This document shows positions 8,805 to 56,159 of a DNA stretch of 64,000 nt, in pieces; positions within the stretch are counted from its first letter, which is position 1; every line of letters starts with the position of its first letter. Source of the DNA: an uncultured Methanosarcinales archaeon (GTDB taxonomy: Archaea > Nanobdellota > Nanobdellia > Woesearchaeales > ARS49); assembly GCA_964354285.1 (NCBI GenBank), contig CAYGYR010000004.1, positions 10,284 to 74,283 of the forward strand. The letters run 5' to 3'. The notes beneath the pieces were generated by a model. The model was not told where the DNA came from. It searched no databases and saw only the letters and a program-made list of their open reading frames with translations. The position numbers were made by a program, and so were the translations under genes.

Positions 8805-9371
8805 ATGAAAGAGAAAAAAGAGGAAACAGTTACTTTAAAGCATGAAATCAAGATGCTCCAGATGTCTGAGATAAGCCTGCTGGTAAATGACTATAATGAT
8901 ATTTTCTCAAGTTTTGACCCGAGGCCTTATTCGCAAAGAGCGCTGTCAGGCGATTTTCTTACAGAAGCGCACAAGGCAAGCAAAGACAAAGACGATAAAA
9001 TAGAGCTCAAGCTTCTCCTTCCCAAAAAGAAAAGAGACCCGCACAAGGAAATTGTGATCAAGGAGAGATTAAAGGGGCATTTTGAGAAGCATTTACATCT
9101 TATACAAAAAGAAAAGACAAACATGATAAAAGAAGGAGTGATTTTTGTCATGATTGGAATGATACTCATGCTCATCGCAACATTCATCCTGTTCAAATAC
9201 GCAAAAAAAGATTTCCTTTTGAACTTTCTCATAATTCTTCTTGAGCCAGGCGGATGGTTCCTGTTCTGGGAGGGACTTAACCAGATAATTTTTGAGTCAA
9301 GAAAAACAAGGGCAAAACTCGAGTTTTACAGGAAAATGTCTAGGTGCGAGATAACTTTCTTGTCATACTAA
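8805..9371 (+). CDS. hypothetical membrane protein
   Basis: 188 aa, soluble N-half, two C-terminal TM helices; TTTAAATA box 30 nt upstream. Confidence 0.55.
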   Translation: MKEKKEETVTLKHEIKMLQMSEISLLVNDYNDIFSSFDPRPYSQRALSGDFLTEAHKASKDKDDKIELKLLLPKKKRDPHKEIVIKERLKGHFEKHLHLIQKEKTNMIKEGVIFVMIGMILMLIATFILFKYAKKDFLLNFLIILLEPGGWFLFWEGLNQIIFESRKTRAKLEFYRKMSRCEITFLSY

Positions 9372-10117: not shown

Positions 10118-11349
10118 TTCTCTTGGCCTGCCCTGTATCCAAAGCGCCCAAAGCGCCCGCGGCCATAATTATTCTTGCTTCTTTCAAACCTTCCGCCAAA
10201 CTTTGAATACTGCTGCGGAGCGCTTCTTGCCCTGAATGATATGCTTGGGAAGTCCTCTTTTGGAAGAAGATCTATCTTCAGGTTGTGGCTGCGCAGAATG
10301 CTGTTGAAGGCATCGTGGTCTTTCTGGCTCAGCAACGTGATTGCCTTGCCTGATTCCCCTGCTCTTGCAGTACGCCCAATCCTGTGGATGTATTCCTGAG
10401 GATCATGCGAGAGGTCAAAATTGAATATGTGCGTGACATACTTGATGTCAAGCCCTCTTGCAGCGACTGCTGATGCAACAAGGATGTTTGGGTTGCCCTT
10501 ATTGAAGTCGTCAAGCACTCTTTGCCTTCTATTCTGGCTCAGCTTTCCGTGAGTCATCTCTGCCTTTATGCCGTTTGTATGAAGGTTTTTCGCGACAATC
10601 TCAACAGTTGACCTTGTTGAACAAAAGATTATTGCCTGTCCAATCTGCTCTTTCTTTAGCAGGTGAACGAGCAGCGAGAACTTTTCGTTAGGCAGGACGT
10701 TGTAATAGTACTGTTTCAGGTATTCTTCCTCAACCTGTGCCTCTGCTTTTGCTATTTCAGGATTATGCATGAATTTTCGCTTGAGATAATCAACTTCACT
10801 AGAAATTGTTGCTCCAAACAAAAGCATCTGCCTGTCGCTTGGCGTCTGGCTTATGATTCTTGTTATGTCTTCAATAAAGCCCATCTCAACCATCTTGTCT
10901 GCCTCATCAAGGACAAGGCAAGCGATTTTTGACAGGTTAATAGTCCCTCTTTGGAGGTGGTCAAGCAATCTTCCTGGGGTTCCGACAACAATATCTGCCT
11001 GCTCAATCTGCCTCATCTGAGGGCCGATTGCGACACCGCCATAAACTGTTGCGATTCTGCACTGCAGGTATTTTCCGAACTTCTGCATCTCCTGTGAGAT
11101 CTGTATTGCAAGCTCCCTTGTCGGGCCCATTATAAGAACCTGAAGCCCGTTTCCTGGGCTTATTTTTTCAAGTATTGGAGCGCCAAAAGCAGCTGTCTTT
11201 CCAGACCCTGTCTTTGACATTCCTATCAAATCTTTGCCTGCTTTGATTATAGGAATTGCTTTTGCCTGAATATCTGTTGGCTCTACTATTCCCATCTCGT
11301 TCAGTGCTTTAACTATCTCTGTTTTTACATTTAAGTCTTCAAATTTCAT
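10114..11349 (-). CDS. DEAD-box ATP-dependent RNA helicase with RGG tail
   Basis: Q motif (PTDIQ), SKTGSGKT, PTRELA, VLDEADKM, GATIS (SAT-like), HRIGRTARAG; C-terminal GRFERS...GRGRFGRFGYR; start set at MKFEDL (11349) rather than ORF-track 11511. Confidence 0.93.
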   Translation of the reverse strand: MKFEDLNVKTEIVKALNEMGIVEPTDIQAKAIPIIKAGKDLIGMSKTGSGKTAAFGAPILEKISPGNGLQVLIMGPTRELAIQISQEMQKFGKYLQCRIATVYGGVAIGPQMRQIEQADIVVGTPGRLLDHLQRGTINLSKIACLVLDEADKMVEMGFIEDITRIISQTPSDRQMLLFGATISSEVDYLKRKFMHNPEIAKAEAQVEEEYLKQYYYNVLPNEKFSLLVHLLKKEQIGQAIIFCSTRSTVEIVAKNLHTNGIKAEMTHGKLSQNRRQRVLDDFNKGNPNILVASAVAARGLDIKYVTHIFNFDLSHDPQEYIHRIGRTARAGESGKAITLLSQKDHDAFNSILRSHNLKIDLLPKEDFPSISFRARSAPQQYSKFGGRFERSKNNYGRGRFGRFGYRAGQEN

Positions 11350-11581
11350 TTTATTTATTTCTCCTTGGAATGTGCAAAATCGCTGTAATAAGCATCCAAG
11401 ATGCCAAAATAGCGTCTCAAGCAATTTGCTGAGATTCAAAACCAGTAGGTTTTGTGAAACAGAATTAGCATAAGTTTTGTTTATACTCTCTGTTTCTGCC
11501 TTCCAATGCAACTAAGTAGTTTTAGGGGGTTTATAAAGCTTGCGGTTTGGGCTTTGAAAATAAGAAGACTGAGAAAATTTT

Positions 11582-12172
11582 TCAGTTCAGTTTCTCGCCA
11601 TACCAATCTCCAGAACAAAACTTTTTATCACTAAACATTCCGAGCTGGAAAGGATAACCCTCGAGCTGCCAGCAGTTTTCCCCTGCTGCAATTTCTCCAA
11701 AATTAGTTATAATGTTCTTAGAATTAAAACAAATAAGAAGCGCAGCATTGCAATTTATGCAGCGGCTGGTGTTCCATTTTCCTTTAATTGGATAATAACA
11801 AACCCTATCACCGAAAACACGCGTTTTGGTTTCTGAAGTATTCCCTGTGCTTAACTGGTTTAAAATTTCAGTCATGGTTAATTTAATGCAAGATTCAGCC
11901 CCTTCATTAATTCTCTCAGAGTATTTATCTGAATAAGAATGAACATAACCCTTACAAGAAGAAATATTTTCGTTAAGAACATTGTAATCGTATTTTAGGA
12001 CTGTGTCACCGCCAGACCTTGACAGGTAAGCAAAATAACGAACATCATATTCAGATGGAATTTTTGCATTCACTAAACTTTTTTCTAAATATTCCTGTGG
12101 AGATAATTGCGGAACGCACGCAGAAATAAATACAATTATTGCAAAAACAGCCAATGCTACAAATATTCTCAT
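11582..12172 (-). CDS. secreted Cys-rich lipoprotein (hypothetical)
   Basis: Signal/lipobox VFISAC after M at 12172; about 9 Cys in the mature part; longer ORF to 12220 possible. Confidence 0.5.
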   Translation of the reverse strand: MRIFVALAVFAIIVFISACVPQLSPQEYLEKSLVNAKIPSEYDVRYFAYLSRSGGDTVLKYDYNVLNENISSCKGYVHSYSDKYSERINEGAESCIKLTMTEILNQLSTGNTSETKTRVFGDRVCYYPIKGKWNTSRCINCNAALLICFNSKNIITNFGEIAAGENCWQLEGYPFQLGMFSDKKFCSGDWYGEKLN

Positions 12173-15612: not shown

Positions 15613-15981
15613 ATGCCTGAACTTGAAGAATTTGTCAAATTATATGTGCTGGCTGAAGTACAGACTGTATTTCATCATGACACTCCCGCAATAGGCATTT
15701 GCACAGAAGTCTGTGTTGGTGAAAAGAAATATGGGCCTTTCACAAAAGAAGATGCTGAAATTAAAAAAGCGAAGAGGATTAAAAAATGGTTAAGCAGACT
15801 GCCTTTCGTAAAAGACCCAATTTATGTCAAGGAACTTTATGAAACAAAGACCGGGCTCTCCTGCGGCTGCTCTTTTGAGATAAACTACGGATTTGTGGAG
15901 AAATATATCCCTAAAAGCAAAATTTCTGTTTCAGATGGAAAAATCGTGATTCAAGATGGAGGTGATTGTAATGAAATATGA
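15613..15981 (+). CDS. hypothetical protein
   Basis: 122-aa ORF; overlaps the next gene by 11 nt. Confidence 0.5.
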   Translation: MPELEEFVKLYVLAEVQTVFHHDTPAIGICTEVCVGEKKYGPFTKEDAEIKKAKRIKKWLSRLPFVKDPIYVKELYETKTGLSCGCSFEINYGFVEKYIPKSKISVSDGKIVIQDGGDCNEI

Positions 15982-16753
15982 AATTCCTGGAAAAGGAGTA
16001 TATGATCTGGATGCAATACTATCGCAGGGCGTGGCTAAAAAAGCATTGTTTGAGCCTGCAATGGCCCCTGATGCTGAGGAGCATGTAACTGCCAAGATAA
16101 AAGAGCGGCAGGGCAAATTACAGAAGCAGATGCAGAGCATCCTGACAGATGTTTTCATGCCGTCTGAAGCAAAAGGAAGGGCAGAAACAATAAATTATCT
16201 TGCACAAGAATATATCTTGAATGAATTCGGGGCAAAATATGATGAGCTGTCACCCCAGCTTTTCGAGCTAAAGCGAGCGATTAAACTGAATGAGAATTTG
16301 AGTTCAATAAAAATACCCTTGTTTGCGCATGCTTCTCTTTTGGGAGACGGCTACTGGAAAATCGATGAGCGCGTGGAAGAATTAGGATTTGGAAGAGATG
16401 CGAGGACACAACATGTAACCATTGAATCAAAAATGCCTCCAATCTCAAGAGAGGCAAAAGAAAAAGCAAGGCAGGCAAATGCAGATTACCTTCAGGCATG
16501 CAGCAATGCGCTCAGGGAGCCTGTGATAGGAGACTGGCTGCTTAAAGACCCTAATTTCCTGCACATTGGGAAAGAATTCCTCCATGTCTACTGGATACCA
16601 ACGCCGGATGAACTAAAAATCACTGTCAAAACAGTGGAAAAAGACCCCTTGCTTGTCGCAAATGTCTGCGACACATATTTTCTTGTCGCAAAATGGAGCC
16701 TGAAAGGTGAAGAGCCATTTGAGCACTATCTTGCAGAATACAAAGTAAGGTGA
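15971..16753 (+). CDS. hypothetical protein
   Basis: ATG at 15971 preceded by GGAGGTGA (15958-15965); 260 aa, no motif. Confidence 0.55.
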   Translation: MKYEIPGKGVYDLDAILSQGVAKKALFEPAMAPDAEEHVTAKIKERQGKLQKQMQSILTDVFMPSEAKGRAETINYLAQEYILNEFGAKYDELSPQLFELKRAIKLNENLSSIKIPLFAHASLLGDGYWKIDERVEELGFGRDARTQHVTIESKMPPISREAKEKARQANADYLQACSNALREPVIGDWLLKDPNFLHIGKEFLHVYWIPTPDELKITVKTVEKDPLLVANVCDTYFLVAKWSLKGEEPFEHYLAEYKVR

Positions 16754-16757
16754 TTTT

Positions 16758-17138
16758 ATGAGATGCATACAAGAGAAAACAATAGAGGAAATAATCGAAG
16801 GCAAAGAGCTAAATTTTGATGGAATTAAGATAGACAAGGAAAAATACACGATGCACATAAAAAGCGAAACAGATTATTTCGTCATCAGCTTCTGCAAAGG
16901 AGAGGATTTCAATAATTCTGAGTTTGAGATACGCATAGACAAGAAAGGTATAAGATTTGAGAGATATGCCAGCAGGCCAAATCATGACCATGATGACAGT
17001 CAATCATTACAGACTGTTGTTGGTGATTTAACAGGCAGGAAAAAAGGAGAGCTTGAATGGAGAGCAAGATGGCCATACCCAGGGGAAGGGTATGATTTAT
17101 TTTACATTCCCTTCGGAAGCGTAAAAGTAGATTACTGA
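16758..17138 (+). CDS. hypothetical protein
   Basis: 126-aa ORF 4 nt after the previous stop. Confidence 0.5.
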   Translation: MRCIQEKTIEEIIEGKELNFDGIKIDKEKYTMHIKSETDYFVISFCKGEDFNNSEFEIRIDKKGIRFERYASRPNHDHDDSQSLQTVVGDLTGRKKGELEWRARWPYPGEGYDLFYIPFGSVKVDY

Positions 17139-43700: not shown

Positions 43701-44747
43701 TCACTCGCTCGCATAAAGATTTCTTGTCAATCTATGGATATCAACAATGTCAGAGAGCATTGCCTTCAGCTTTGCGACTATCTGGGCAATCTCTATTGTT
43801 TTGTTCTTAAGGAAGTATGCATCAAGAGAATCAGCTATCTCCCCCCTGGTTAGCATGACAGAGCATTCTGATTTCTTGGTATAATACAAAGTCATTGTTG
43901 TGCAGTATTCCTGGTAAATCCTCTCAATCAATTTTTTTAATCCAGGAAGGTCTGCATTCTTTTTCTTCTTCACAATACTCAGGATTCTCGCAATCCTTTT
44001 TGCCTGGTCTGCAACCTTCTCAATCCTTATCTGAAGCTCCCAGTAGCCAAGTGCCTCAAGATTAGAGATATGCAGCGCCTGCTTCACAGACGGATCTGTG
44101 AAAGCAGTCTTGAGTATCTTGAGAATCAGGAAGGTTATCCTGTTCACATCAAAATCCCGGTTGACTATAAGCTCGTGAATATCATCCCCCGTGGTCATGT
44201 TAATCGTATCAAGAATCATAGACCTCGTTATGTTATCAATGCGCCTTGTGAGCTTGTCAAGCGAAACTGTCTTTATGTCAATGAAGCTGTCTGCAACAAG
44301 CTTTGTCGATGACTCGTCCACAATCTCGAGCGCAAACAAGCCTGCAATCTCTTTTTTTATAAAATCAAGATGCTTTGGAATGTCTTTTCCCTTGAGAACA
44401 ATGATGCTGTAAGGATTAAGATACGCAGAGACAAGCTCCCTGTGGATGCAGTGCTGCTCTTTATTATCTACATTTATGACAATTTCCTTCTGCTGGACAG
44501 TAGATGCCTGGTATTTTGTTGATACGACAAGCTCATTATCCCCTTTTTCCTCTATGTAGAGCTTGTCACCTTTCTTGAGCTTGTTCCTTTCAATCCAGTC
44601 CTTTGGAATCGCAACTGTGTAAGATGCCTTTCCTGATTTTACTATTGTCCTGACGTCCATATTCTCAGGGAGAGGCGGCTTGCTTATAAAACTTTCGTTC
44701 TGGACTGTATAAAACGTGTTTTCTTCGCTCTCTAACGTGTTTTCCAT
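43701..44747 (-). CDS. AbrB/SpoVT-PhoU fusion regulator (archaeal phosphate-uptake-regulator type)
   Basis: ASYTVAIPKDWIERNKLKKGDKLYIEE AbrB-type N-domain followed by two PhoU-like helical repeats. Confidence 0.8.
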   Translation of the reverse strand: MENTLESEENTFYTVQNESFISKPPLPENMDVRTIVKSGKASYTVAIPKDWIERNKLKKGDKLYIEEKGDNELVVSTKYQASTVQQKEIVINVDNKEQHCIHRELVSAYLNPYSIIVLKGKDIPKHLDFIKKEIAGLFALEIVDESSTKLVADSFIDIKTVSLDKLTRRIDNITRSMILDTINMTTGDDIHELIVNRDFDVNRITFLILKILKTAFTDPSVKQALHISNLEALGYWELQIRIEKVADQAKRIARILSIVKKKKNADLPGLKKLIERIYQEYCTTMTLYYTKKSECSVMLTRGEIADSLDAYFLKNKTIEIAQIVAKLKAMLSDIVDIHRLTRNLYASE

Positions 44748-44780
44748 TTTTTGATAGCTTTCGCCCTTTTTGCCGCTTTC

Positions 44781-45530
44781 TTAAAAAAAAAGATCGTCTT
44801 TCACGCTCTGCAGGATTGTATAAACCACTGCTTTTTTTGCCTGCCCTTTTGAAAGGTATTCAAGTGCAGTCTCCTGTGTATTCTTGTTTGCATTCGCAAA
44901 ATAGATATCTGTGGCAAGAAGATACTTCAGGTCACGGATATTCCTTGCATTAATCGCAGTTTCCTTGATCTTGTTATACTTGAACAATGAAAGGTATTTC
45001 TCAGTAACAAGCTCGCAAATCGGGCTTGGCTTCCTGAACTCATAAAATGCATCATCCCGCACCTGCGAACGATGGTTGCTCTGCGTCATCATCTCAAAAA
45101 GCGCATCTTTTCCTGTATCTTCAGGAGCTGCGACCATACTCTCCATCGCAGTCTGCATAAGCTGGAGGGCAAAATACTGGCTGAAGCGCTTCATGCTCAT
45201 CTTTTCAATGTCATATTTCTCTTTCCTGCAGCCAGTTATCTCAACCAGAACATCAAAAAGAATTGTCTTCTTGATTGAGTCATCACTTGTGTTGGCATCA
45301 ATTTTTGCGCGCCTTATAACGTCAACATCAACAAAAGTGTCAAGCAGGCAGGATTCAACAGGGTCAAGGGCGCCATAGTAGTGGGCTTTTGGCGAATAAT
45401 TCTGCCCGATAATGTATTTTACCTTGTCCTCGTATGTCCTAAAGCGCTCCTGCTTCTCACGGGCAGCCTGCTTTTCCTCATGCGTTTTGGCTTCTTCTGA
45501 AACCAGCATGCATAAATCAACTTCTTTCAT
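44781..45530 (-). CDS. alpha-helical hypothetical protein, last gene of the Ubl/E2/JAB/E1 operon
   Basis: ATG at 45530 follows the E1 stop as TAAGATG with AAGGTGGT SD; ORF-track start 45548 also possible; no motif recognised. Confidence 0.55.
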   Translation of the reverse strand: MKEVDLCMLVSEEAKTHEEKQAAREKQERFRTYEDKVKYIIGQNYSPKAHYYGALDPVESCLLDTFVDVDVIRRAKIDANTSDDSIKKTILFDVLVEITGCRKEKYDIEKMSMKRFSQYFALQLMQTAMESMVAAPEDTGKDALFEMMTQSNHRSQVRDDAFYEFRKPSPICELVTEKYLSLFKYNKIKETAINARNIRDLKYLLATDIYFANANKNTQETALEYLSKGQAKKAVVYTILQSVKDDLFF

Positions 45531-45531
45531 C

Positions 45532-46980
45532 TTAACCACCTTTTGCATAGAGCTTTCCCATCTTCCTCAGCCATGCCGTGTAAAAGTCCTTTGGCTTTGT
45601 ATGGCAGTCACATGCCCCTCTTGAGCCAAGCATTCCAATGCGCACAGGTTCTGTGCTAATGTACTTCAAAATACCCCTGATTGGCTCCCCATATTTGTGG
45701 CTCTCAAGCACTGCGCCTGCCTCATTCACAATCATTCCGCCAACAATCTGGTTGCTTATGATGACACTCGGCTCTGCAGCATGAATGCAGCGCTGAGGCT
45801 TGAAGTTCTGCAGGGCAAGATCATCGATAGTGAGCTGGCACTGCAGGCAGCTTGTCTTTCCAGGGACATACACAGTTGCCTGCCCTGACTTGAAATCAGT
45901 GCCGCCGCTGATCAATGGAATCTGCATGGTGCGTGCATAATAATTCAGCAGTGCCCTTGTCTTGAAATTGTCAACACTATCTATGATTAAAGCAGGCCTG
46001 TTTGCTTTCAGGTATTTGCCAAAATTCGTGCCTACACGATTAAAGCTATACTCCCACTCCATGCCTGGATTGATTTTCTTAAGCTTTTCAACAAGCGCCT
46101 CTGCCTTGCGCTTTCCAACAGAGTCATAGAACAGCACCTGCCTGTTAAGGTTGGTCTCCTCAACAATATCATCATCAAAGATTGTTACCTTGCTTGCGCC
46201 GCGGATTGCGAGCCCAAGCCCAACAAAATTCCCAAGCGCGCCAGCACCAACAAGCACTACATTGCCATTGTTCTTCTGCGTTTCAGCAGGCATCTCCATA
46301 TTGTTTGCATAGCCTGTCCTTTCCTTTGAGAGCAGATTATATGAAACAATCCTGTCAAGAGGCCTGTCATTCAATGGCATGATGAGCTTTCTTGCCTCGT
46401 CAGCAACCAGGCCGCCAATCACCATGCTTGTCGCAGCGCTCTGCTCTTTTGCCCTGTATTCAGGAAAAAGATACTTTTCATCAAGCCTGCCAAGCGAAAC
46501 AGCAATCTCGCTGCTTTCAGCAGAGCTGGCTGCTGATATCACAGGCTTTCCGATTCTCTGCCCGTAATCAAGCGCGATGAGCTTTGAGCACGGGTCATTT
46601 GTGCAGTCAATAATCAGGTCAAGGCCGCCGAGCAGGCTTGCCTGGCTTGCGTAATCAAAGCTGATGCTAATTCCTTTCACATCAACTGTGGGGTTTATCT
46701 TCTTCAGCATGTCCTCAAGAGATTTTGCCTTGCTGCTGCCTTTTCTTGACCAGGAGCAAAGAAACTCCTCTCTGTTCTTAGGGTCTGCCCTGCCAACGTC
46801 GTATATCTCAATGTGGCCAAAGCCAAGGGCAGTGAGGGGAAGCGCAACAAACTGCGCAAGAGAGCCTGACCCAATTATGCCAACCCTTGCATTCTCAAGC
46901 AGGGCCTGGTTCCAGCCCTCAATCCTGTTCTGCCTGTCATACCTTGCGATTTTGCTTATTTCTGGGAAGATTGCTTGCAT
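45532..46980 (-). CDS. E1-like activating enzyme with tandem ThiF/MoeB Rossmann domains
   Basis: Domain 1: RYDRQ..VGIIGSGSLAQ but KNREE instead of NLNRQ. Domain 2: VLVGAGALGNFVG..FDDDIVEETNLNRQ..IDSVDNFKTR..CLQC..RCIHAAEP..CDCH. GGAGGTGGAGGA directly before the ATG. Confidence 0.88.
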   Translation of the reverse strand: MQAIFPEISKIARYDRQNRIEGWNQALLENARVGIIGSGSLAQFVALPLTALGFGHIEIYDVGRADPKNREEFLCSWSRKGSSKAKSLEDMLKKINPTVDVKGISISFDYASQASLLGGLDLIIDCTNDPCSKLIALDYGQRIGKPVISAASSAESSEIAVSLGRLDEKYLFPEYRAKEQSAATSMVIGGLVADEARKLIMPLNDRPLDRIVSYNLLSKERTGYANNMEMPAETQKNNGNVVLVGAGALGNFVGLGLAIRGASKVTIFDDDIVEETNLNRQVLFYDSVGKRKAEALVEKLKKINPGMEWEYSFNRVGTNFGKYLKANRPALIIDSVDNFKTRALLNYYARTMQIPLISGGTDFKSGQATVYVPGKTSCLQCQLTIDDLALQNFKPQRCIHAAEPSVIISNQIVGGMIVNEAGAVLESHKYGEPIRGILKYISTEPVRIGMLGSRGACDCHTKPKDFYTAWLRKMGKLYAKGG

Positions 46981-49895
46981 TCCTCCACCTCCGCAATTGC
47001 TTTTGCGAATTTTTCAAGAACAGCATCAGGGTCTTCAGCGCCATTGCTGCGGTACGCATTCACGAAATCCACCAGGAACTCCCTCAGCTGCTGCTTTTTT
47101 CCAGGCGCAATAAAGCAGGTCAAGTCAAGCAGAAGCTGGTTTGCAATCATTTTCTTGTCTTTTTCTGTATAAAAGTAGTCAGTGCTCCATTCCAAGTCTG
47201 ATTTGAGCTCCCCTGCTGACTTAAGCGCACTGTCAAAGGCCACAAACTTTTCAGGCCCTATTATGTCTTCAAGGACGCTTCCTGCCCATGAGCAATATTT
47301 CCTCTTGCATGGCTTCTTGTCAAAGCACCATCCTTCCATTGTGTAATCAGATACTGCTTTGGCAAATGCATTCGCAGCCATTGAATCGCGGGCAAATTCA
47401 GTCATCTGGCCATAAAACTCTGGAATCTTCTCTGGCTTGAAGCCGGCAATGAATTCAAGGAACAGCCTGTCCTTTATCTCTGCCTCAGATGGCTTGCCCT
47501 CGCTGCACCAGTCAAACCGCTTCCTGACTTCATCTTCTATCGCAACATTTTCCTCCAGCACTTTTTTTGTGCCGTCAGCCAGTGCCTTTTTAAAAGGCTT
47601 CTTGATATCATCCTCTTTCTTGCCTGCCAGCTTTATGAGGAAGCTGCCAAGCCATGCAGCATATTCCCCGCCATTGAACATGTATTCTTTTGCTGACTGG
47701 AAGAAAGAATCAAAAATCCCGCCATACACCTTTTCAAATATCTCCTTGCGCTCTTTCTCTGTCGGATCAAAGCTTGGCTTTGCAGGAACAAATTTGTGCT
47801 CATAGCTGCTGTGTTTTGCCGCAATATGCAGGTCTTCTGTAACTGCTCCTGGCATTGCTGCCCTTGGGCAATCATAAAAATCCCAGTCAACCGCGTGTTT
47901 TGCTTCTTTTTCATTGCCCTCTGCTTCTTTCTTGAAATATTTCTCAAGAACAGAATCTTTGTCTTTTTCTTTAAGGAACTCTGCCACAAACTGCCTGAAT
48001 TCAGCGCTATTCAAGAGCTCAGCAGATGCCTTCTCAAGCATCTTGTCCCTCCCCCAGCTATTATAGCTGGGCCTTTTAAGACTGGATTTCTTGAATGTTT
48101 TCAGGTTGCACCTGGCTGCACGCAGGAAACTATCGCCGCGGCCAGTATATCCGTGCTTGAAATCCTGGAATGTGTCGACAGCCCACTCGTTATACTGGTA
48201 TGGCTTCTTGTCTGCATAGCTGTCTTCTATGTACGCAGTGAATGCATCAAGAAAGTGCTCTGCAAGCCCAGAAGCGTTTTCATTTTGCTTTGTGATATCT
48301 TTCCTGACAAGCGCAACAAGAGGGTCATCGCTGCCATTCTTTTCTGGCTTTTCTTTAATTATCCTTACAGGAATCTTCACAGCACTATCTTTCTTTTTAT
48401 CTTCAGCATCTGCTTTTTCTGATGGCTTTGCTTCTTTTTTTTCAGGGGGCTCTTCATTTTCTTCAGTATCTTCTATTTTTGCGCTTTTGTATTCATTTAA
48501 TGCATTGATGGCCTTCACTTTTTCTTTTCCATCAATAAATCCCTCTACGAGCTGGCAGAGTGTCTGGCTTTTTGACAGCTCTTCAGCAAATCTGGGGACA
48601 AATTTGCGCCTGTGCTTCTCTTTGGAGTAGCTTATGACGAAATATGTTTTTGCGCTGTTTGCGAAATTAATTGATTCAACAAAATCTCTCTGGTCTATTA
48701 TGTAATTCGTGAAGACCCTGTTAAGCCACTTCCGTGAGGCTTCTTTCTGGCTATTGTCTGTGATATACTCTTTTGCAGCTTCATAGAACTGCTCTGCAAG
48801 CTTGCTGAAATCAGAAGGCTTTTCTTTCTCTTCAGCAGACTTCTTTGCTTCTTCTTCTTTTTCTTCTTCTGCTTTCTGCTCCTCTTTCTTTTCCAGCTCT
48901 TCCTGCTTTTTTCTTTCTTCCTCTGCATGCTTCTTGTCTTCCTCTACTTTCTTCTCATATGCTTTTTTCTTATGCTCCTTCAGGCTGTTTAGCTCTTTCT
49001 CAATCTTTTCATTGATTGAGTCAACTGCATCAGGCTTTTTGCTGTCTCCGCAAAACCAGCCGACAACATAATCAAAAAAGTCAAACCAGCCCCAGCGCCT
49101 TGCATCCTTCGCCTTGGAGACTGCGATTTTTGTCACAGGCGCGTATCTCCCGACCTTCAGTTTCTTATAGACTTCGTCTTCCATCAGCTTTGCATCAATG
49201 CTGACATCAGTCTCAATTTCACTTAGCATGAAGCCCGCTGCTTTTTTTGGATTCTTAAGAACCCACTTGTTGTCAGGCCCAAGCTCTTTTGCCTGCACTT
49301 CAGTATAGACATCGCCCAGTATATTAACGACAACAGAGTATGCCCATGAGCTGGAATTCTTTTTCTTCACATCAGCATCTTTCAGGTGCTCTGCGTTTAT
49401 TGCATAGCCTCCCAGGTCAAGCTTTCCGTTTTTTACAAGGTCCTCAAGCTTCACGTCTTCGTATTCTGTCTTTAAAGTATTTGGTGCAACAGAGTGCACG
49501 ACTGTCTCGAAATTATTAACATCTGTGCCTGAATGGAACACGCCAAAGCGTGCGTGAGAATGCCACCATCCAACAATCTTGTAGCCTTTTGGATCAACTG
49601 CTTCAGCAGCCCTTACAACATCCTCACCATCAATTTTACAGTACCCGCCTGAATATACCTGGTTGTCTGCAAGATATGCGTCAACAACAAGGTCTGTATC
49701 ATCATCTTTCATTGCAAGCAAAAAGCCATAGCACTCATTTGCAGAGCCAGTTATCCTCTCAACAAGCCTCGCGTATGTCTTTGCCTTTAGCAATGCGCCA
49801 GGAGTTATGTTCACTTTCGCAGGCCCTGCCTCTTTTTTAGCTGCCTCCTTTATGGAATACGGCTTTGAGTTCAATACTTCATCAAGATTAAACAT
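46956..49895 (-). CDS. giant JAB/MPN+ (JAMM) metalloprotease-domain protein
   Basis: ANECYGFLLA (Glu) and HSHARFGVFHSGTD (HxHx7Sx2D) at 49521-49562; K/E-rich linker; about 600-aa helical C-terminal region; TAATG junction with the E2-like gene, GGAGGTG SD. Confidence 0.85.
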   Translation of the reverse strand: MFNLDEVLNSKPYSIKEAAKKEAGPAKVNITPGALLKAKTYARLVERITGSANECYGFLLAMKDDDTDLVVDAYLADNQVYSGGYCKIDGEDVVRAAEAVDPKGYKIVGWWHSHARFGVFHSGTDVNNFETVVHSVAPNTLKTEYEDVKLEDLVKNGKLDLGGYAINAEHLKDADVKKKNSSSWAYSVVVNILGDVYTEVQAKELGPDNKWVLKNPKKAAGFMLSEIETDVSIDAKLMEDEVYKKLKVGRYAPVTKIAVSKAKDARRWGWFDFFDYVVGWFCGDSKKPDAVDSINEKIEKELNSLKEHKKKAYEKKVEEDKKHAEEERKKQEELEKKEEQKAEEEKEEEAKKSAEEKEKPSDFSKLAEQFYEAAKEYITDNSQKEASRKWLNRVFTNYIIDQRDFVESINFANSAKTYFVISYSKEKHRRKFVPRFAEELSKSQTLCQLVEGFIDGKEKVKAINALNEYKSAKIEDTEENEEPPEKKEAKPSEKADAEDKKKDSAVKIPVRIIKEKPEKNGSDDPLVALVRKDITKQNENASGLAEHFLDAFTAYIEDSYADKKPYQYNEWAVDTFQDFKHGYTGRGDSFLRAARCNLKTFKKSSLKRPSYNSWGRDKMLEKASAELLNSAEFRQFVAEFLKEKDKDSVLEKYFKKEAEGNEKEAKHAVDWDFYDCPRAAMPGAVTEDLHIAAKHSSYEHKFVPAKPSFDPTEKERKEIFEKVYGGIFDSFFQSAKEYMFNGGEYAAWLGSFLIKLAGKKEDDIKKPFKKALADGTKKVLEENVAIEDEVRKRFDWCSEGKPSEAEIKDRLFLEFIAGFKPEKIPEFYGQMTEFARDSMAANAFAKAVSDYTMEGWCFDKKPCKRKYCSWAGSVLEDIIGPEKFVAFDSALKSAGELKSDLEWSTDYFYTEKDKKMIANQLLLDLTCFIAPGKKQQLREFLVDFVNAYRSNGAEDPDAVLEKFAKAIAEVEECKQSSQK

Positions 49896-51367
49896 TAATC
49901 CCACCTCCGTTGTTCTTGGTTCTTGCGTATCTTGACAATATTTTTATTAAAGACAGGAATGTTGTTTTTTTGGATGCGCTCTTCTGAAATCACGTAATCC
50001 CCGAAATGATAATCATCAAGATTTGCCATTGGCGTATGATGTGACATGTCGAAATAGCCCTGCAGAACCACTCCTTTTGCATCAGAAAGAAAAGTCAGCA
50101 CGCTCTCTAATGAAGGAAGCCTTCTTGTGCGCTCATAATCATAGTTTCCTAAGCAAATACGCCCGTTAACTGCATTTAAGCCAGTAAAAGGATGCGGGTA
50201 ATTTCCAAGGACAATTGGGTCCTGCACATAAATTCCATTCCCATCATTTACCAATTGAACAGCAATCTTTCCTTTTTTGAACAGGTAATACTTGCCGTTA
50301 TGCGGGCTCTGAAGCGCATACTGCTCAGGCGTCTCGACATAGACATAATACTTGTTATCCTTTTTCAGGAATCCCACGCCTGATTTTTCATAATTATTTG
50401 ACTGAAGAATCTCCCTTAATGCCTGCCTTTCTTTTTGAGCTTCTGTAAGCGCAGCTGACTGGACGCCATTATTCCTTAATGCATCTATCTTGAACTTCTT
50501 TGCAAGCCTGCGCACATAGCTCTGGTATATTTCAGGCATCTGCTGGTGGGACCGCTGAAAGCTGAACTTTTGGGCGCCTATGAATACGGAAACGCCGTTC
50601 TGCTCCTTTGCTTCTGGAACAAGGTCATAGACACGCCCCCCGAAAATGGCAATAGAACCATGCAAAAGGCTTCCAAAAACAGAGCTGTCTGTGCTGTCCT
50701 CCTCTTCGAGCAGTGTTTTTCCAGGGGCATACTCCTGCAGGATGCTGATAATCTGGTTCTCTGTTTGTTTGCTTCTGGCAGGCATGTAATTAACATTGCC
50801 ATATTTTGCTCTTAAGAGATCCTCGATATTTCCTGCTTGCTGCGGGGCCTTTTCTGCCTGCTGCGCACAAAGCTCAGAGTCTAAATACTCTTTCTCAACT
50901 TTTCTTATCAACTTTTCAATGATTGCATTGTTTTCGCGTATGTCAATGTCAGAAACAGCGTCGCTAAGCGCGGCCTTAGGCGCTTTTTCCTGCGCGCCTG
51001 CTTTCACGCCGAGCAGATCCTTTATCTCCTTCTCCTCATATGCCCGCGTCAGCGCAGGAAGAACGTCTCTCACAATAAAAGAAAGAACTGCATTCTCTTC
51101 AAGAGCTCTTTTTGCAGCATCATTCTCCTTTACTTCCTTCTTGATTGTTGCTTCCAGAAAAGACTTCTGAAAATCCGCTATTTCCTGCTTTGCGCGTTCG
51201 AGAAAAATATTTTCATGAGTCCCAATGTCATCAAGCTTTGCCAGGCTCAGGCGCTTGCTGTAAGCCACAAGGCACCCGTCTTCCTGCCTCTCCCCAACAA
51301 CATAGATTTTCCCGTTGTGGAATATCACAGGATCCCACTCAAGCAAAAAATACGGCTTTAGCTCCAT
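49895..51367 (-). CDS. E2/UBC-like protein with large N-terminal extension
   Basis: C-terminal YPHPFTGLNAVNGRICLGN (50147-50194) resembles the HPN-x8-11-G-x-I-C-L E2 active-site signature; GGAGGG SD. Confidence 0.55.
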   Translation of the reverse strand: MELKPYFLLEWDPVIFHNGKIYVVGERQEDGCLVAYSKRLSLAKLDDIGTHENIFLERAKQEIADFQKSFLEATIKKEVKENDAAKRALEENAVLSFIVRDVLPALTRAYEEKEIKDLLGVKAGAQEKAPKAALSDAVSDIDIRENNAIIEKLIRKVEKEYLDSELCAQQAEKAPQQAGNIEDLLRAKYGNVNYMPARSKQTENQIISILQEYAPGKTLLEEEDSTDSSVFGSLLHGSIAIFGGRVYDLVPEAKEQNGVSVFIGAQKFSFQRSHQQMPEIYQSYVRRLAKKFKIDALRNNGVQSAALTEAQKERQALREILQSNNYEKSGVGFLKKDNKYYVYVETPEQYALQSPHNGKYYLFKKGKIAVQLVNDGNGIYVQDPIVLGNYPHPFTGLNAVNGRICLGNYDYERTRRLPSLESVLTFLSDAKGVVLQGYFDMSHHTPMANLDDYHFGDYVISEERIQKNNIPVFNKNIVKIRKNQEQRRWD

Positions 51368-51380
51368 ATAGTTCCCTCCA

Positions 51381-51409
51381 AAAAAAATTAAGCCCCAAAA
51401 TTAAGGGGC
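51381..51409 (-). terminator. hairpin plus T8 run between the Ubl and E2 genes (attenuator candidate)
   Basis: Minus strand GCCCC-TTAATTTT-GGGGC immediately after the Ubl stop, then TTAATTTTTTTT. Confidence 0.4.
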
Positions 51410-51808
51410 CTAAATTTTGTACTCCAGACCTCCTTCCTGGACACTTGCGACTGCTATCTCAGCAAGGCCATACTGCACCTTGTTGCCGTCCTCAAGATCC
51501 TTGTTTTGAGGCTTGATGTATTTCTCAAGAATCTCTTCTTTTATCTTCTCTGCAGTCACAGAGTCAACCCCATTAAGCATTATGACGTATTTTCCTGTCT
51601 TTTTCATCTCCTGCTTGATGGAGTCTGCAATGCTCCTCTCCTTGTCGTCCTTCAGCTGGTCTGGCCTTGTCGCATACTTTATTGCGTCGTCCAGCGACTT
51701 CTTTTCCAGCTCAGGGGGAATTCTCCTAACGATTGCTTCCTTTGACATTCCGCCCCTGACACTAATTATCTGCGGTATATCGACCGCAACTGCTTCTTCT
51801 TCTGGCAT
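51410..51808 (-). CDS. ubiquitin-like modifier candidate (Gly-Gly plus 5-residue tail)
   Basis: 132 aa from ATG at 51808 (GGAGGT SD, 7-nt spacer); ends ...ASVQEGG-LEYKI; C-terminal about 55 aa have a beta-grasp-like alternation; first gene of the operon. Confidence 0.5.
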   Translation of the reverse strand: MPEEEAVAVDIPQIISVRGGMSKEAIVRRIPPELEKKSLDDAIKYATRPDQLKDDKERSIADSIKQEMKKTGKYVIMLNGVDSVTAEKIKEEILEKYIKPQNKDLEDGNKVQYGLAEIAVASVQEGGLEYKI

Positions 51809-51904
51809 TTTGGTTACCTCCAAACATTTTTTATTTTTGAGGGCTCACAAATGTGTGTTACCTCCCAGAGCTAAAGCTATATGTCTTAGCCCTGAATTAT
51901 TTTT

Positions 51905-52068
51905 TTGAAGAGCCCGAAGATGTTGCGGCTTCAACGCACAAATTTTAAATACTTGAAAAACCCAAATATCTGCGTTGAAACCTGCCCCGGTTTCTTCAGG
52001 TTCCTCCTGGCCCCTGGCTAGGAAGGAACTTTCTTTTCGCGTAACTAAAAAGCTATTTGCTTTTTAGT
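51905..52068 (-). promoter_or_regulatory. GC-elevated multi-hairpin intergenic region upstream of the Ubl operon
   Basis: 10-bp perfect hairpin 52044-52068; 52000-52029 stem; GAAACC/GGTTTC 51977-51994 overlapping the 9-bp pair TTCAACGCA/TGCGTTGAA (51930-38 / 51971-79). Confidence 0.35.
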
Positions 52069-52082
52069 ATCAACAGAACTCG

Positions 52083-52577
52083 CTAATGCGAGTTTGTTGT
52101 ATCCCAGTCAAGGTGAATTTGATTTATTGCGCATTCAAGATCTTTAACTTGAGCATCAATGAATTCATGCAGCTTATTCTGATCTTCATACTCGCATCCC
52201 TCTTCTGACTTAAATTGAGGTATGAGGAATTGTATTGTCTCAACAGACGCTATCTCTCCGATAAAATTGAGGCAGGCGATTGCGTATCGCAAGTCCTTGA
52301 TTGCGCCTTCATAATCTTTTTTCATCCATTTCTTTCCATAGCCTTCGCTTGGGTCTGAGTAGTATTGTATTTCCTTGAATAACTGCTGGATTGTCTCTGG
52401 CCCATACTTCACGCCGCAATCAGGGTTGAAATCAGCCATAACTTCTTTGAAATCTTTCACTTCTTTCTGCAGCCTGTCAAGAAGAGTGGCCTTTTGTTCT
52501 TTGGGAGCTGGAATGCCAAGTATATCATAACCTGTTTTATCTTTTTGCTGTTGGTACTGGCCGGTTTTTCTTTGCAT
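52083..52577 (-). CDS. hypothetical helical protein
   Basis: ATG at 52577 preceded by GAGGAGGT; 164 aa. Confidence 0.5.
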   Translation of the reverse strand: MQRKTGQYQQQKDKTGYDILGIPAPKEQKATLLDRLQKEVKDFKEVMADFNPDCGVKYGPETIQQLFKEIQYYSDPSEGYGKKWMKKDYEGAIKDLRYAIACLNFIGEIASVETIQFLIPQFKSEEGCEYEDQNKLHEFIDAQVKDLECAINQIHLDWDTTNSH

Positions 52578-52641
52578 TTTTTTTACCTCCTCATAAAACA
52601 TATACAGATGTTATTGTATATATTTCTGGTGCATGTGTATC

Positions 52642-52976: not shown

Positions 52977-53978
52977 TCATCCAATTTGATGCTCGCTTCC
53001 TTCTTTTGCAAACTCTACGCTAAGGCAGCAGTGGTTTCTTCCATCCATTCTTTGATAGAGATACTCTTTTGCCCTTTTCTCGAGGTCTTTTACTATCTCA
53101 TCTGTGCTTGTTGGGTCATGGTGGGTGAAGATTATTTTCTTCACTCCTGCTTCGAGGGCAATGTCTATTCCTTTCTCGTAAGTCGAATGGCCCCAGCCTT
53201 TCTTTTTCTCATAAATCTCTGGAGTGTACTGGCCGTCATAGATTAAAATGTCAGCTCCTCTGGCCCAATCTATGAGCTTCTTGTCATTTCCTTCTGTCAC
53301 AAGCGATGCATTGCTGTCATGCTCATAATCTGTTGCAAAAACAACTGCATTGTCTTTTTCAGCTATCTTGTAGCAAAAGACTCCGTCTGGATGATTCATC
53401 CTTTTGTAGCTTACCTCAACTCCATTGCTTACCTTTACTCCTTCTGCAATGTCCTTGAAGCAGAGCTCTGCTCCCATCTGCTTTATTTCAACAGGGAAGT
53501 ATGGCTTTGTCTGCTGGTACTGGAACATTGCTTTTGCCTTGTTCATCTCTCCGTTCTTGTTAGTTATGATTGCAGTCTCTTTTGTGAGCCTGTCTGTGAG
53601 GTCTCCTTTTGTTATTCTTCTTGTTTCAACACCGTCCTGCTTTCTCTGGACTCTCTCAAGGTCTTCTTTTGTCACATCTGCATCTCCTGAGTAGACATCC
53701 AGCTTGTTTCCAGGAATGTATGCTGGAGTGAAAAAAGGAAATCCCTGGACATGATCCCAGTGCTTGTGGCTCAGGAAGAGCTTTGCATCAAGTGTCTTGC
53801 CTGCATACCTTTTCATAAGGTCTGCTCCTAGCTCTGTTATTCCTGTTCCTGCATCAAAGATATACTCGTCTCCTTCGCCAGATATCACTTCCAGGCAGGT
53901 TGTGTTTCCGCCATACTCAATAGTGCTCTTTCCTGGCTTTGGAATTGATCCTCTTGTTCCCCAAAATTTTATTTTCAT
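52977..53978 (-). CDS. MBL-fold metallo-hydrolase
   Basis: LSHKHWDHVQG (HxHxDH), downstream His/Asp ligands (FTHHD); GGTGATGA SD. Confidence 0.85.
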   Translation of the reverse strand: MKIKFWGTRGSIPKPGKSTIEYGGNTTCLEVISGEGDEYIFDAGTGITELGADLMKRYAGKTLDAKLFLSHKHWDHVQGFPFFTPAYIPGNKLDVYSGDADVTKEDLERVQRKQDGVETRRITKGDLTDRLTKETAIITNKNGEMNKAKAMFQYQQTKPYFPVEIKQMGAELCFKDIAEGVKVSNGVEVSYKRMNHPDGVFCYKIAEKDNAVVFATDYEHDSNASLVTEGNDKKLIDWARGADILIYDGQYTPEIYEKKKGWGHSTYEKGIDIALEAGVKKIIFTHHDPTSTDEIVKDLEKRAKEYLYQRMDGRNHCCLSVEFAKEGSEHQIG

Positions 53979-54200: not shown

Positions 54201-55205
54201 ATGAGAGTACTTCAAACAGCACAGCCAGAGCAAAGGGTCGAGCTAGACACCTATGACAAAAAGATACTCTTTGCCTTGTCCCAGAACTCAAGGACACCAT
54301 ACAGCCAGATAGGCAAAAAAGTAGGCCTGAGCAGGGATTCTATCAGGTATAGGATACAGCGACTGACTAAAAACAATGTAATACAAGGCTATAGAACAAT
54401 CATAGATATAACAAAACTGGGCTACATGAACTTCCATGTCTTCCTCCAGCTAAACCAGCCAGACCCAGAGGCTGAGAAAAAGCTAGTTGAGATATTCAAG
54501 GCATACCCTTTTGTCAGGGCAATCATAAAGTTCAGCGGGAAATATGACTTTGAGCTTGCAATCATCGCAAAAACAGTCAAAGATCTTGACACCATACTTT
54601 CCCAGATAATAACAGACTGCGGAGAGACCTTGCAGCACTATGAGTTATTGATTATCACAAAATCTTTTGCAGGAAAGAGCTTTCCAGACAATTTTTACAA
54701 GGCTCCTGAGGCAAAAATAATTCCGAAGCCAGCAGCTGCAGAGCCAAAGCTTGATGAAAAAGACCATCTTCTGCTTTCTGTGATATCAAACCAGGCAGAC
54801 CTTCCTTTGTATTCTGTTGCAAAAAAAGTCGGGCTTTCATCAGATGCTATAAAGTACAGGCTCAGGAAACTCAAGGAAAGCGGAGTCATTGTCAGCTACG
54901 TGCCTGTCATCAATTTTGAGAAGCTGAACTACAATGTTTATGCTATTTTACTCAGCATCGCCAACTTCACTCCCAAAAAAGAAGCTACTTTGAAAGAATT
55001 CCTCTCAACAAACAAAGACACTTTGTTCGGGGTAAAAACATTCGGCAAGTATAATGTCCTCCTTTACATCTGCACAACAAACCCAGATGACTTGATCAAG
55101 ACAACAGCAGAATTAAGAGGGCACTTTATCGGGGACGTAAGAGATTACGAGACCTTGATAAATTATGAGGAGTATAAGTATACTTATTTTCCAGAACAAG
55201 AATGA
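54201..55205 (+). CDS. fused double Lrp/AsnC-family transcription regulator
   Basis: Two complete HTH_AsnC+RAM units: DKKILFALSQNSRTPYSQIGKKVGLSRDSIRYRIQRL and DHLLLSVISNQADLPLYSVAKKVGLSSDAIKYRLRKL. Confidence 0.85.
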   Translation: MRVLQTAQPEQRVELDTYDKKILFALSQNSRTPYSQIGKKVGLSRDSIRYRIQRLTKNNVIQGYRTIIDITKLGYMNFHVFLQLNQPDPEAEKKLVEIFKAYPFVRAIIKFSGKYDFELAIIAKTVKDLDTILSQIITDCGETLQHYELLIITKSFAGKSFPDNFYKAPEAKIIPKPAAAEPKLDEKDHLLLSVISNQADLPLYSVAKKVGLSSDAIKYRLRKLKESGVIVSYVPVINFEKLNYNVYAILLSIANFTPKKEATLKEFLSTNKDTLFGVKTFGKYNVLLYICTTNPDDLIKTTAELRGHFIGDVRDYETLINYEEYKYTYFPEQE

Positions 55206-56159
55206 TTATTTAATTTTTGCCGAAATAGCCTCTGGAAAATATGCATATCTTGCAAGCGGATAAAGATAATCCCGCAGTATTAATAACCTGCTTGTGATGA
55301 TTGCATCTGGAAAGCCGCCTTTGCGCAGTATGTTTTTAATTGGCTCTTTCAATGATTGAACCCTGCACTTGTATTTGTAAAACGCTTCAAGACAGGATTT
55401 GTTTTTGTAAAGCGCATAACTATGCTCAATCAATTCAACAATCTGCTGGTATATTTTCAAAGTTTCAGGCTTGAGTCTTATGTTTTGTTTAACACCGACA
55501 AGCTCCATGCAAATACTTTTTAGCTCAAAATTCATGTGAGCTAAACTTCTAATAATAGAGTATGTGGAGGTTATTGAATAATATGAAGATATTCCTTGTT
55601 TATCGGCATACCCTCTTTTGTTCAGTATTCTGAGGCATAAATATCCGAATTTAACAGTGATTTCAAAAACCGTGCTCAGCCCATCTAATTTCTGATAATC
55701 CCCTGCCTTAATTATTTCAAAGCTTTCCTTGGCAAAGGTAATTACGCTCATATAAATTTTATTAATGAATCTGTCCAGATCTTCTTCATATTCCTCGGCA
55801 ATGTTTTTTATCACGCAATGCCTTGGGCCCTGTTCAACAGTCACAAATCCTAAGAAACTTTGCGCTAATGCCTCGTTAATCTTGGTAAGAACCGCAGGGT
55901 TTTCAAATGTTATGTACAGTTCATCATATCCTGCAATATACGGCCTAGTCAGTATCCTTGAAAGAAAATATTCTGCATCTTTAATGTGAATCTCAAGCTT
56001 GTTGTAACTTTTTTCTGTTTTTGCATTTATTATCAGTTGCCTACCATTTTCTGTGACTTCAATCTCTTCACCCTTATGCAGATTCAACTGTTTTGCCCAC
56101 TTTTTTGGTAAAGATACCATTAATGTAGACGGACCTATTTTAGCAATTTTTCTCTTCAA
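55206..56159 (-). CDS. AbrB/SpoVT-PhoU fusion regulator, second copy
   Basis: KIGPSTLMVSLPKKWAKQLNLHKGEEIEV AbrB N-domain plus PhoU-like helices; TTG start after GGGGGT. Confidence 0.8.
   Translation of the reverse strand: MKRKIAKIGPSTLMVSLPKKWAKQLNLHKGEEIEVTENGRQLIINAKTEKSYNKLEIHIKDAEYFLSRILTRPYIAGYDELYITFENPAVLTKINEALAQSFLGFVTVEQGPRHCVIKNIAEEYEEDLDRFINKIYMSVITFAKESFEIIKAGDYQKLDGLSTVFEITVKFGYLCLRILNKRGYADKQGISSYYSITSTYSIIRSLAHMNFELKSICMELVGVKQNIRLKPETLKIYQQIVELIEHSYALYKNKSCLEAFYKYKCRVQSLKEPIKNILRKGGFPDAIITSRLLILRDYLYPLARYAYFPEAISAKIK

Follow-up and report, generated by a model that had tools for sequence, protein, structure and literature searches.

Complete E1-E2 conjugation of ubiquitin-like (Ubl) modifiers was long held to be eukaryotic, and is now known from the Caldiarchaeum and Asgard archaea and from the bacterial defence operons Bil, CBASS and Bub. 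The modifier of Caldiarchaeum, CsUb, is 31% identical to human ubiquitin (quoted in PMC11354881), and the Bub systems show that E2-like carriers can escape detection by sequence (PMC11601596). Canonical eukaryotic E1s and BilD are characterised by an inactive adenylation domain (IAD) and an active adenylation domain (AAD) joined in one protein, the other known bacterial E1-like proteins being homodimers (PMC10557695). The openly accessible literature that we searched describes no Ubl system from DPANN archaea or Woesearchaeota, although mention in comparative-genomics surveys is possible. Here we describe a cassette of five genes at positions 44781-51808 of a 64,000-nucleotide stretch (the window) of contig CAYGYR010000004.1, from an uncultured archaeon labelled Methanosarcinales. 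We consider it very probable that this cassette encodes a system for the ubiquitin-like tagging of proteins that has not been described before. An earlier reading of the window, made from its letters and translations without database searches (the sequence-only reading), had proposed it as a Ubl conjugation operon, and the analysis reported here follows up that proposal. In order of transcription, the five genes are as follows:

51410-51808, minus strand: Ubl-precursor candidate, 132 aa from its ATG, an open reading frame (ORF) with a Shine-Dalgarno (SD) motif; the ORF extended to a TTG reaches 51823
49895-51367, minus strand: cysteine protein at the E2 position (E2L), an ORF of 490 aa without a Pfam family
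46956-49895, minus strand: JAMM/JAB protease (JAB), 979 aa from its ATG, or 982 aa from a GTG at 49904
45532-46980, minus strand: E1, 482 aa
44781-45530, minus strand: P5, a helical protein of 249 aa (255 from an upstream ATG), the fifth conserved gene of the cassette

A conserved order of five genes

Local hidden Markov models (HMMs) of the five proteins were made from the first cassettes and used to scan the six-frame ORFs of 20 fetched loci (L001-L020). The order Ubl candidate, E2L, JAB, E1 and P5 on a single strand was found in every complete related locus, and 15 independent cassettes were identified. Eight of these are loci in metagenome-assembled genomes (MAGs) from GTDB that came from an independent peptide-pattern scan and were excluded from building the detection models for the Ubl candidate, JAB, E1 and P5. 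The order is kept even where the E2L proteins are only ~20-30% identical. Conservation of the neighbourhood had been set beforehand as one of two points on which the proposal could be refuted, and what was found is strong conservation; on the other point, the folds of the first two gene products, the searches described below gave nothing significant.

Within the window, the five ORFs are co-directional and tightly packed on the minus strand, as had been read from the letters, with overlapping or abutting junctions. The E2L stop and the JAB start share a TAATG at 49895, the JAB gene runs 25 nt into that of the E1 (46956-46980), and the E1 stop and P5 start together read TAAGATG (45528-45534). 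Each of the five starts is preceded by an SD motif (GGAGGT, GGAGGG or AGGTGG) at a distance of 5-9 nt. The description of the junctions as coupling-type therefore stands for these three, but not for that between the Ubl candidate and E2L, which are separated by a 42-nt spacer, the sole non-coupling junction of the operon. This spacer contains a further feature:

51378-51413, minus strand: hairpin (9 bp, 5 of them GC) followed by T8, directly after the stop of the Ubl candidate; terminator- or attenuator-like

The predicted free energy of the hairpin is -15.1 kcal/mol (z = -2.15), and its stem pairing is kept through compensatory changes in two relatives of ~50% identity (L001, 3594-3640; L002, 3537-3584). 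Oligo-T tracts are found at the equivalent position of the spacer in several distant cassettes (L013-L017 and L019). A hairpin and oligo-T after the first gene suggests that the Ubl candidate is transcribed in excess of the enzymes.

The candidate modifier, its protease and its activating enzyme

The sequence motifs from which the sequence-only reading had picked out the Ubl candidate, the 490-aa protein, the JAB and the E1 are all real and far beyond chance. For the Ubl candidate, this motif is at the C-terminus, VQEGG-LEYKI, where Gly126-Gly127 (51428-51433) are followed by the five-residue tail LEYKI (51413-51427). Gly126 and Gly127 are invariant in all 18 family members from the 15 cassettes, as two of only six invariant positions in the family, and Glu125 is nearly invariant. 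The tail that follows is variable in sequence and in length (1-14 aa). A conserved Gly-Gly with a variable tail is the pattern of a modifier precursor with a tail that would be removed, and this comparison across cassettes is the strongest evidence that the protein is a Ubl precursor. Trimming of this type, of the BilA tail by BilC, has been shown experimentally (PMC10557695).

The fold of the Ubl candidate is less clear. Its AlphaFold2 (AF2) model has a mean predicted local distance difference test score (pLDDT) of 70, and a Foldseek search with this model returned nothing significant (best E = 0.058). Nearly all of the weak matches are beta-grasp or Ubl domains of unrelated families: the Ras-binding domain of PI3K, talin F0/F1, Sharpin, the UBLs of ZFAND1 and NIRF, Ufm1 and EccD. 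There was no significant sequence match in Pfam, NCBIfam or the PDB, where the best hints were the similarity of one family member to the Pfam ThiS-like family (E = 0.014) and a match to NCBIfam PRK06437 (19 bits, E = 0.0012). Of what had been claimed for this gene, a small protein with a conserved Gly-Gly and a cleavable-type tail is upheld, while a beta-grasp fold in 51410-51808 is hinted at by the model below the level of significance.

Two further observations concern the N-terminus of this protein. A second Gly-Gly occurs in VRGG (residues 17-20; 51749-51760, minus strand), a site that reads GGG or PG in other members and where Gly20 is invariant across the family; a structural turn and a second processing site are both candidates. 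In addition, the family members of L006, L012-L014 and L016-L020 begin with a conserved MGSYDT(G/S)E, followed by a Ser/Arg/Pro-rich and probably disordered extension of 40-90 aa. This start is found in most members outside the clade of the window, and is absent from the protein in the window.

The third gene of the cassette encodes the candidate processing enzyme, in which two features can be placed:

49476-49823, minus strand: JAB core, residues ~25-140 (Pfam)
49521-49562, minus strand: HxHx7Sx2D motif

Pfam analysis matched this core to both Prok-JAB (E = 3.4e-8; 33.8 bits with a cut-off of 25) and JAB (E = 6.2e-5; 23.2 bits with a cut-off of 22.5). The JAMM motif (E54...H112-S-H114-x7-S122-x2-D125) is intact, and is kept in all eight cassette JABs compared (8/8). 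By motif and by Pfam, the 979-aa protein is thus a predicted JAMM/MPN+ metalloprotease with a very large extension, as had been proposed. The extension of ~840 aa consists of a charged Glu/Lys coiled-coil region and then helical regions, and gave no match to anything in the searches made. JAB length ranges from 275 to 980 aa among the cassettes, with short forms in L010 and L011. Internal repeats in the extension are not claimed, as their scores were low (z = 1.6-3.7 only). In L008, residues ~760-845 of the JAB extension (gene at 9292-12144) resemble a separate 315-aa protein (15927-16874; BLASTP E = 3e-9) that is encoded two genes downstream of the cassette. This resemblance suggests that extension modules may be shuffled between JABs and stand-alone proteins.

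The fourth gene encodes the tandem-ThiF E1 that had been anticipated, with two ThiF stretches identified by Pfam (E = 2.6e-58) in an IAD-AAD layout:

46306-46980, minus strand: N-terminal half, residues 1-225, a degenerate ThiF/Rossmann domain (IAD)
45532-46305, minus strand: C-terminal half, residues 226-482 (AAD)
45787-45789, minus strand: candidate catalytic Cys398, on a short crossover loop

RYxRQ and the Rossmann glycines (GSGSLA) are retained in the N-terminal half, which has lost the nucleotide/Mg motif DxDxVexSNLnRQ. The C-terminal half features GAGALG, DDDxVEETNLNRQ, K292 and D337-N338, and key residues of its ATP site are present in all 15 cassette E1s (15/15). Judged by these residues, the E1 is likely to be a single-chain IAD-AAD pseudo-dimer with an inactive N-terminal half and an active C-terminal adenylation domain. 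Four cysteines (C378, C381, C457 and C459) are invariant in all 14 full-length E1s (14/14), and their positions are those of the structural zinc site of BilD and of the SUMO and NEDD8 E1s (PMC10557695). The same 14 proteins all have Cys398, which is on the crossover loop and separated from the CxxC (C381) by 16 residues. In PADLOC, the N-terminal half matches only the ThiF part of the Cap2 models. The E1 itself ends with ...YAKGG in the window's clade (45532-45543, minus strand), with ...YDKGG in L002 and with ...YAKGGKNG in L001. The E1s of distant cassettes have no GG-type end, and this ending may be due to chance or be a cis auto-modification site.

The best sequence matches of the E1 are models of the ThiF/MoeB family, which, along with the weak similarity of one Ubl family member to ThiS, would also fit a sulfur-carrier or biosynthetic system. 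Here, the ThiF-like enzyme would thiocarboxylate the Gly-Gly protein, which would supply sulfur to a cofactor, a thio-metabolite or the thiolation of tRNA. This carrier would be trimmed by the JAB, with no tagging of proteins. There are bacterial precedents for JAB-trimmed sulfur carriers in Mec+/CysO and QbsD/QbsE. However, the 15 cassettes contain no rhodanese, cysteine desulfurase, ThiG/MoaE-type acceptor or other sulfur enzyme, and three large accessory proteins would have no place in sulfur transfer. In at least one host, separate genes are available for such chemistry: ~5 kb upstream of its cassette, L006 (2279-4320) encodes a ThiF of the conventional single-domain type (356 aa) together with a ThiI-like protein and an 81-aa ORF, so this host has its own sulfur-carrier-type E1. 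Furthermore, the IAD-AAD arrangement is known only from conjugating E1s (PMC10557695). We therefore consider a sulfur carrier very unlikely, and it is with good confidence that we assign the Ubl candidate, the JAB and the E1 to a Ubl-activating and Ubl-processing module.

The cysteine protein at the E2 position and a proposed pathway

The identity of the second gene product, E2L, determines whether this module is part of a full cascade. The sequence-only reading had assigned it as an E2 with a UBC-like active site, from an HPF(392-394)-x10-C405 motif in which the cysteine is part of ICLG. The relevant positions are as follows:

49898-50476, minus strand: C-terminal domain, residues ~298-490 (AF2 model)
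50186-50194, minus strand: HPF, residues 392-394
50153-50155, minus strand: Cys405

An exhaustive HMM search identified 396 cluster representatives of the E2L family at E <= 1e-3 (227 at E <= 1e-10), where a word-index search had found only seven relatives, and all members that are named in their source are labelled 'hypothetical protein'. Cys405 is present in 88 of 89 aligned members, and the single exception has a cysteine one residue away. The other motif residues are also well conserved (Pro393 in 87/89, Phe394 in 80/89 and His392 in 77/89).

An AF2 model of E2L built from the 89-sequence alignment has a pLDDT of 84, which exceeds 90 over residues ~320-480. In this model, the N-terminal ~300 aa form two units, each a small four-stranded beta module followed by a long helical hairpin. 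The C-terminal domain comprises a helix (301-322), seven strands (325-387) and the HPF loop leading to Cys405, after which come helices at 411-415 (short) and 419-436 (long) and then a further three. In the UBC fold, strand beta4 is followed by HPN, the catalytic cysteine ~10 residues on, a 3-10 helix and helices alpha2-alpha4. The modelled elements of E2L appear to parallel this fold in order and spacing from the last strand onward. Consistent with this, two independent hhalign runs placed HPF on HPN, IC on IC and the next helix on alpha2. The weak PDB matches of the E2L model in Foldseek (E = 0.6-2) include Fts (an E2 variant), UBE2O twice and the RWD domain of Knl1; by a rough estimate this excess of UBC/RWD-class matches is above chance, which is not proof.

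A series of results weighs against an E2 identity and a full E1-E2 cascade. The hhalign comparisons of the E2L domain with a UBC profile were not significant (P = 0.11 with 89 sequences and 0.32 with 25; reversed controls ~0.7), using a profile that was validated by its recovery of 260 PDB E2s at E <= 1e-30. Pfam gave no match for the full protein or for 89 divergent members, and none to UBC at E <= 10 for 25 isolated C-terminal domains. There was no match to UBC in PADLOC or NCBIfam, and five divergent members had no PADLOC match at E <= 1. Only noise was obtained when the protein and its isolated domain were compared with the PDB using phmmer and hmmsearch. Despite the confidence of the full-length model, Foldseek against the PDB found nothing significant (best E = 0.4), and a search of BFVD likewise found nothing significant, with one borderline match to an unnamed protein. 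The motif itself reads HPF, without the catalytic Asn of HPN, and the domain has seven strands where UBC has four. To these are added the sub-significant fold of the Ubl candidate and the architecture of the E1, which lacks both the CYS domain (~80 aa) found in BilD and in eukaryotic E1s and a ubiquitin-fold domain (UFD) to recruit an E2. The E2/UBC assignment as originally made for 49895-51367 is therefore not sustained, since no profile or structure search gave a significant UBC fold there. What is present is a conserved, catalytic-looking cysteine domain with UBC-like topology, for which the searches stop short of demonstrating UBC homology. We infer an E2 role for it from its context, the HPF...Cys motif and the order of its secondary structure. 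The borderline BFVD match, the best for E2L in this viral structure library, is A0A1B0WLX5, a 420-aa protein (E = 4.7e-3, probability 0.99, 159 columns).

Two cassettes encode E2L paralogues, in each case beside a single Ubl candidate, JAB and E1:

L010, 4147-5829, 5826-7526 and 10001-11668: three E2L paralogues, the third in place of P5
L015, 5249-6976 and 6983-8608: two E2L paralogues

Such an expansion beside a single copy of each other component is as expected of a specificity-bearing E2. P5 is weakly but detectably conserved across the cassettes and is encoded 3' of the E1 in 12 of 15; the exceptions are L010, where the third E2L takes its place, and L012 and L016, which end inside the E1 gene. 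As had been described, it is a helical protein of unknown family, with no Pfam or PDB match, and it contains no Cys/His motif. Most simply, P5 would be an adaptor or scaffold.

A system without an E2 has to be weighed against this interpretation of E2L. In a sampylation-like system, the E1 alone would conjugate the modifier, the JAB would mature and remove it, and E2L would serve as scaffold or substrate receptor, be a preferred target or act as a redox-sensitive regulator. In most archaea, no E2 is needed in the only route established by experiment (PMC11354881), UBC homology is not detectable in E2L, and Cys398 is on a short crossover loop as in non-canonical E1s of the MoeB/ThiF/UbaA type, with no CYS domain or UFD. 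However, a scaffold would hardly be expected to retain a cysteine in 88 of 89 proteins within a conserved HPF...IC.G loop, and the strict adjacency of the E2L and Ubl genes, together with the expansion of E2L paralogues, fits a catalytic specificity factor. The E1 is also a fused IAD-AAD protein and not a UbaA-type homodimer, and scores 113.4 bits against the 450-bit cut-off of the NCBIfam UbaA model (NF047750). On this evidence, a sampylation-like system seems distinctly unlikely.

On balance, it is probable that the five genes form a self-contained Ubl conjugation cassette with a full cascade, typical of DPANN Woesearchaeota/Nanoarchaeia. Observed directly are the set of genes with its order and coupling, the active-site motifs of the JAMM protease and the E1, the conserved Gly-Gly with its tail and the conserved cysteine of E2L. 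We infer the beta-grasp fold, tail cleavage, thioester transfer, E2 role and targets in this pathway, which would proceed as follows. The 132-aa protein would be made as a precursor, probably in excess given the hairpin and oligo-T after its gene, and the JAMM protease would cut after Gly127 to remove the variable tail. The AAD of the E1, supported by the degenerate IAD, would adenylate the exposed Gly-Gly carboxylate and load the modifier onto Cys398, from where it would pass to Cys405 of E2L, acting as an E2-like carrier. Targets could be chosen without an E3 by the N-terminal region of E2L, by P5 and perhaps by the JAB extension, and the JAB may also reverse conjugation. A more specific form of this proposal, put forward tentatively and as one that may well be wrong, is that DPANN archaea have their own conjugation pathway, so far undescribed. 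It would comprise a pseudo-heterodimeric IAD-AAD E1 of the eukaryotic and Bil style, a thioester carrier (an extremely diverged UBC domain or an independently evolved fold), modifiers of a new Ubl family and P5 as a new adaptor.

A conserved cassette of this type in genome-reduced DPANN archaea would widen the known spread of E1-E2 conjugation. If the proposal is true, it represents a third archaeal route to ubiquitin-like tagging and places fused IAD-AAD E1s in archaea beyond the Asgard/Caldiarchaeum lineage. If confirmed, it would offer a tractable five-protein system in which to study the origin of E2-like carriers and the choice of targets without an E3, and would pose the question of what use the tagging of proteins is to an episymbiont whose genome is minimal: proteostasis, interaction with its host or defence against viruses. 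Three of the five families (the Ubl candidate, the cysteine protein and P5) match no Pfam model, and their definition would annotate hundreds of 'hypothetical' proteins.

Hosts, flanking genes and described conjugation systems

The eight GTDB loci are labelled Ca. Woesearchaeota (three), Ca. Nanoarchaeia (one), 'uncultured archaeon' (one) and 'uncultured Methanosarcinales' (three, all third-party annotation (TPA) records). Hosts that carry a name are Ca. Woesearchaeota, which NCBI places in the kingdom Nanobdellati (DPANN), with the exception of one 'Euryarchaeota archaeon SM23-78'. The names of these homologues (Ca. Woesearchaeota or Nanoarchaeia) agree with the DPANN host suggested by the sequence-only reading. 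The GTDB scan for the clade of the window itself found no representative, and the pattern scan, within its limits, turned up no copy of the cassette on the viral contigs of IMG/VR.

The genes around the cassette vary among distant loci. They include AbrB/PhoU-like regulators, a metallo-beta-lactamase (MBL) hydrolase and an Lhr helicase in the window, Ser/Thr kinases and a ClpB-like AAA+ protein in L008, GrpE-DnaK-DnaJ in L010, and NAD-salvage genes in L011 and L012. As the flanks differ while the gene order stays, it is the five genes, and not their surroundings, that make up the conserved unit. In the window, the flanking genes include the following:

52083-52601, minus strand: 172-aa protein of unknown family, upstream of the cassette
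52977-53978, minus strand: RNase Z-like MBL-fold hydrolase, upstream of the cassette
54201-55205, plus strand: tandem-AsnC/Lrp regulator, upstream of the cassette
43701-44747 and 55206-56159, both minus strand: two paralogous AbrB/SpoVT-type and PhoU-like regulators that bracket the region

The first three of these are syntenic with the cassette in L001, L002 and L004 (~50% identity) and are not found with distant cassettes, and a gene similar to the bracketing regulators is encoded near the L006 cassette. A link to the 6A-MBL system was rejected, as the MBL protein encoded upstream belongs with generic hydrolases of the RNase Z-like type. GC content is 0.43-0.47 across the cassette (44001-52000) compared with 0.35-0.40 in the flanks, and at third codon positions (GC3) it is 0.46-0.55 in the cassette genes compared with 0.29-0.53 in the other genes of the window. 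A foreign origin of the cassette was considered on this basis and dropped, as the GC3 ranges overlap and transfer is not clearly evidenced.

Among described systems, the ubiquitin operon of Caldiarchaeum subterraneum and Asgard archaea (PMC3082918, PMC5654768) is likewise archaeal, and likewise combines a modifier, an E1, a protein at the E2 position and a JAMM protease. In that operon the modifier is a genuine ubiquitin, the E2 is of the canonical UBC type and the E3 is a small RING protein. The E1 of the present cassette is a fused IAD-AAD protein, none of the cassette proteins has a Pfam match to ubiquitin, UQ_con or RING, and neither sequence nor fold searches detected any of those three components, which sets the cassette outside this group. 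The absence of a RING match also agrees with the earlier statement that no RING/E3 was to be seen. The SAMP/UbaA/HvJAMM system of Haloferax shares a GG-ended modifier, a ThiF-family E1 with a crossover-loop cysteine and a JAMM isopeptidase. It needs no E2, its UbaA is a single-domain homodimer and its genes are dispersed, whereas here there is a tandem E1, clustered genes and a tail on the modifier. The JAB scores 17.8 against the 130-bit cut-off of the NCBIfam desampylase model (NF041370), which, with the E1 score given above, places the cassette outside SAMP systems. Bub (6E/DUF6527; PMC11601596) is likewise a Ubl/E1/E2 pathway that has diverged, with unusual catalytic residues and additional proteins that belong to no known family. 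Bub has Ser/Tyr oxyesters and no catalytic cysteine, a DUF6527 serine protease and fused proteins, in contrast to the invariant cysteines, JAMM protease and separate genes found here.

The likeness to Bil component types that had been noted from the letters is borne out by published descriptions of BilABCD (PMC10557695, PMC11601596), in which the four functional types (BilA-BilB-BilC-BilD) have the same order as here and the Ubl protein has a C-terminal extension after its Gly. This raises the possibility of an antiviral role with the same chemistry, where the modifier would be conjugated to virion proteins as in Bil. Besides the shared component set and gene order, the JAB weakly matches the PADLOC BilC model (E = 0.003), some cassettes adjoin kinases and STAND-like or AAA ATPases, and the extensions and paralogues are highly variable. 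However, no component matches the PADLOC models of BilA, BilB or BilD, and the synteny of housekeeping flanks is stable across relatives of ~50% identity. Other cassettes adjoin DnaK/GrpE/DnaJ or NAD-salvage genes and not defence islands, no copies were found on viral contigs in the pattern scan, and GC3 is not clearly foreign. As a biological role, virus defence is therefore unlikely, although it retains some chance.

Beyond these missing model matches, the cassette differs from Bil in several respects. BilB has a conserved cysteine with an adjacent histidine (CEHH in type II) where E2L has HPF-x10-C, and the fold of E2L is not recognisably UBC. The JABs reach 980 aa compared with ~160, and the ~80-aa helical CYS insertion of BilD is not found in the E1. 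A fifth conserved gene (P5), archaeal hosts and stable chromosomal synteny are also particular to the cassette. The two systems nevertheless have much in common: in Bil, too, the E1 joins an IAD at the N-terminus to an AAD at the C-terminus in one chain and has a zinc site formed by two crossover-loop and two C-terminal cysteines, and neither system has an E3 or a UFD. Although the cassette falls outside Bil as defined by these features, it is BilABCD to which it is functionally closest.

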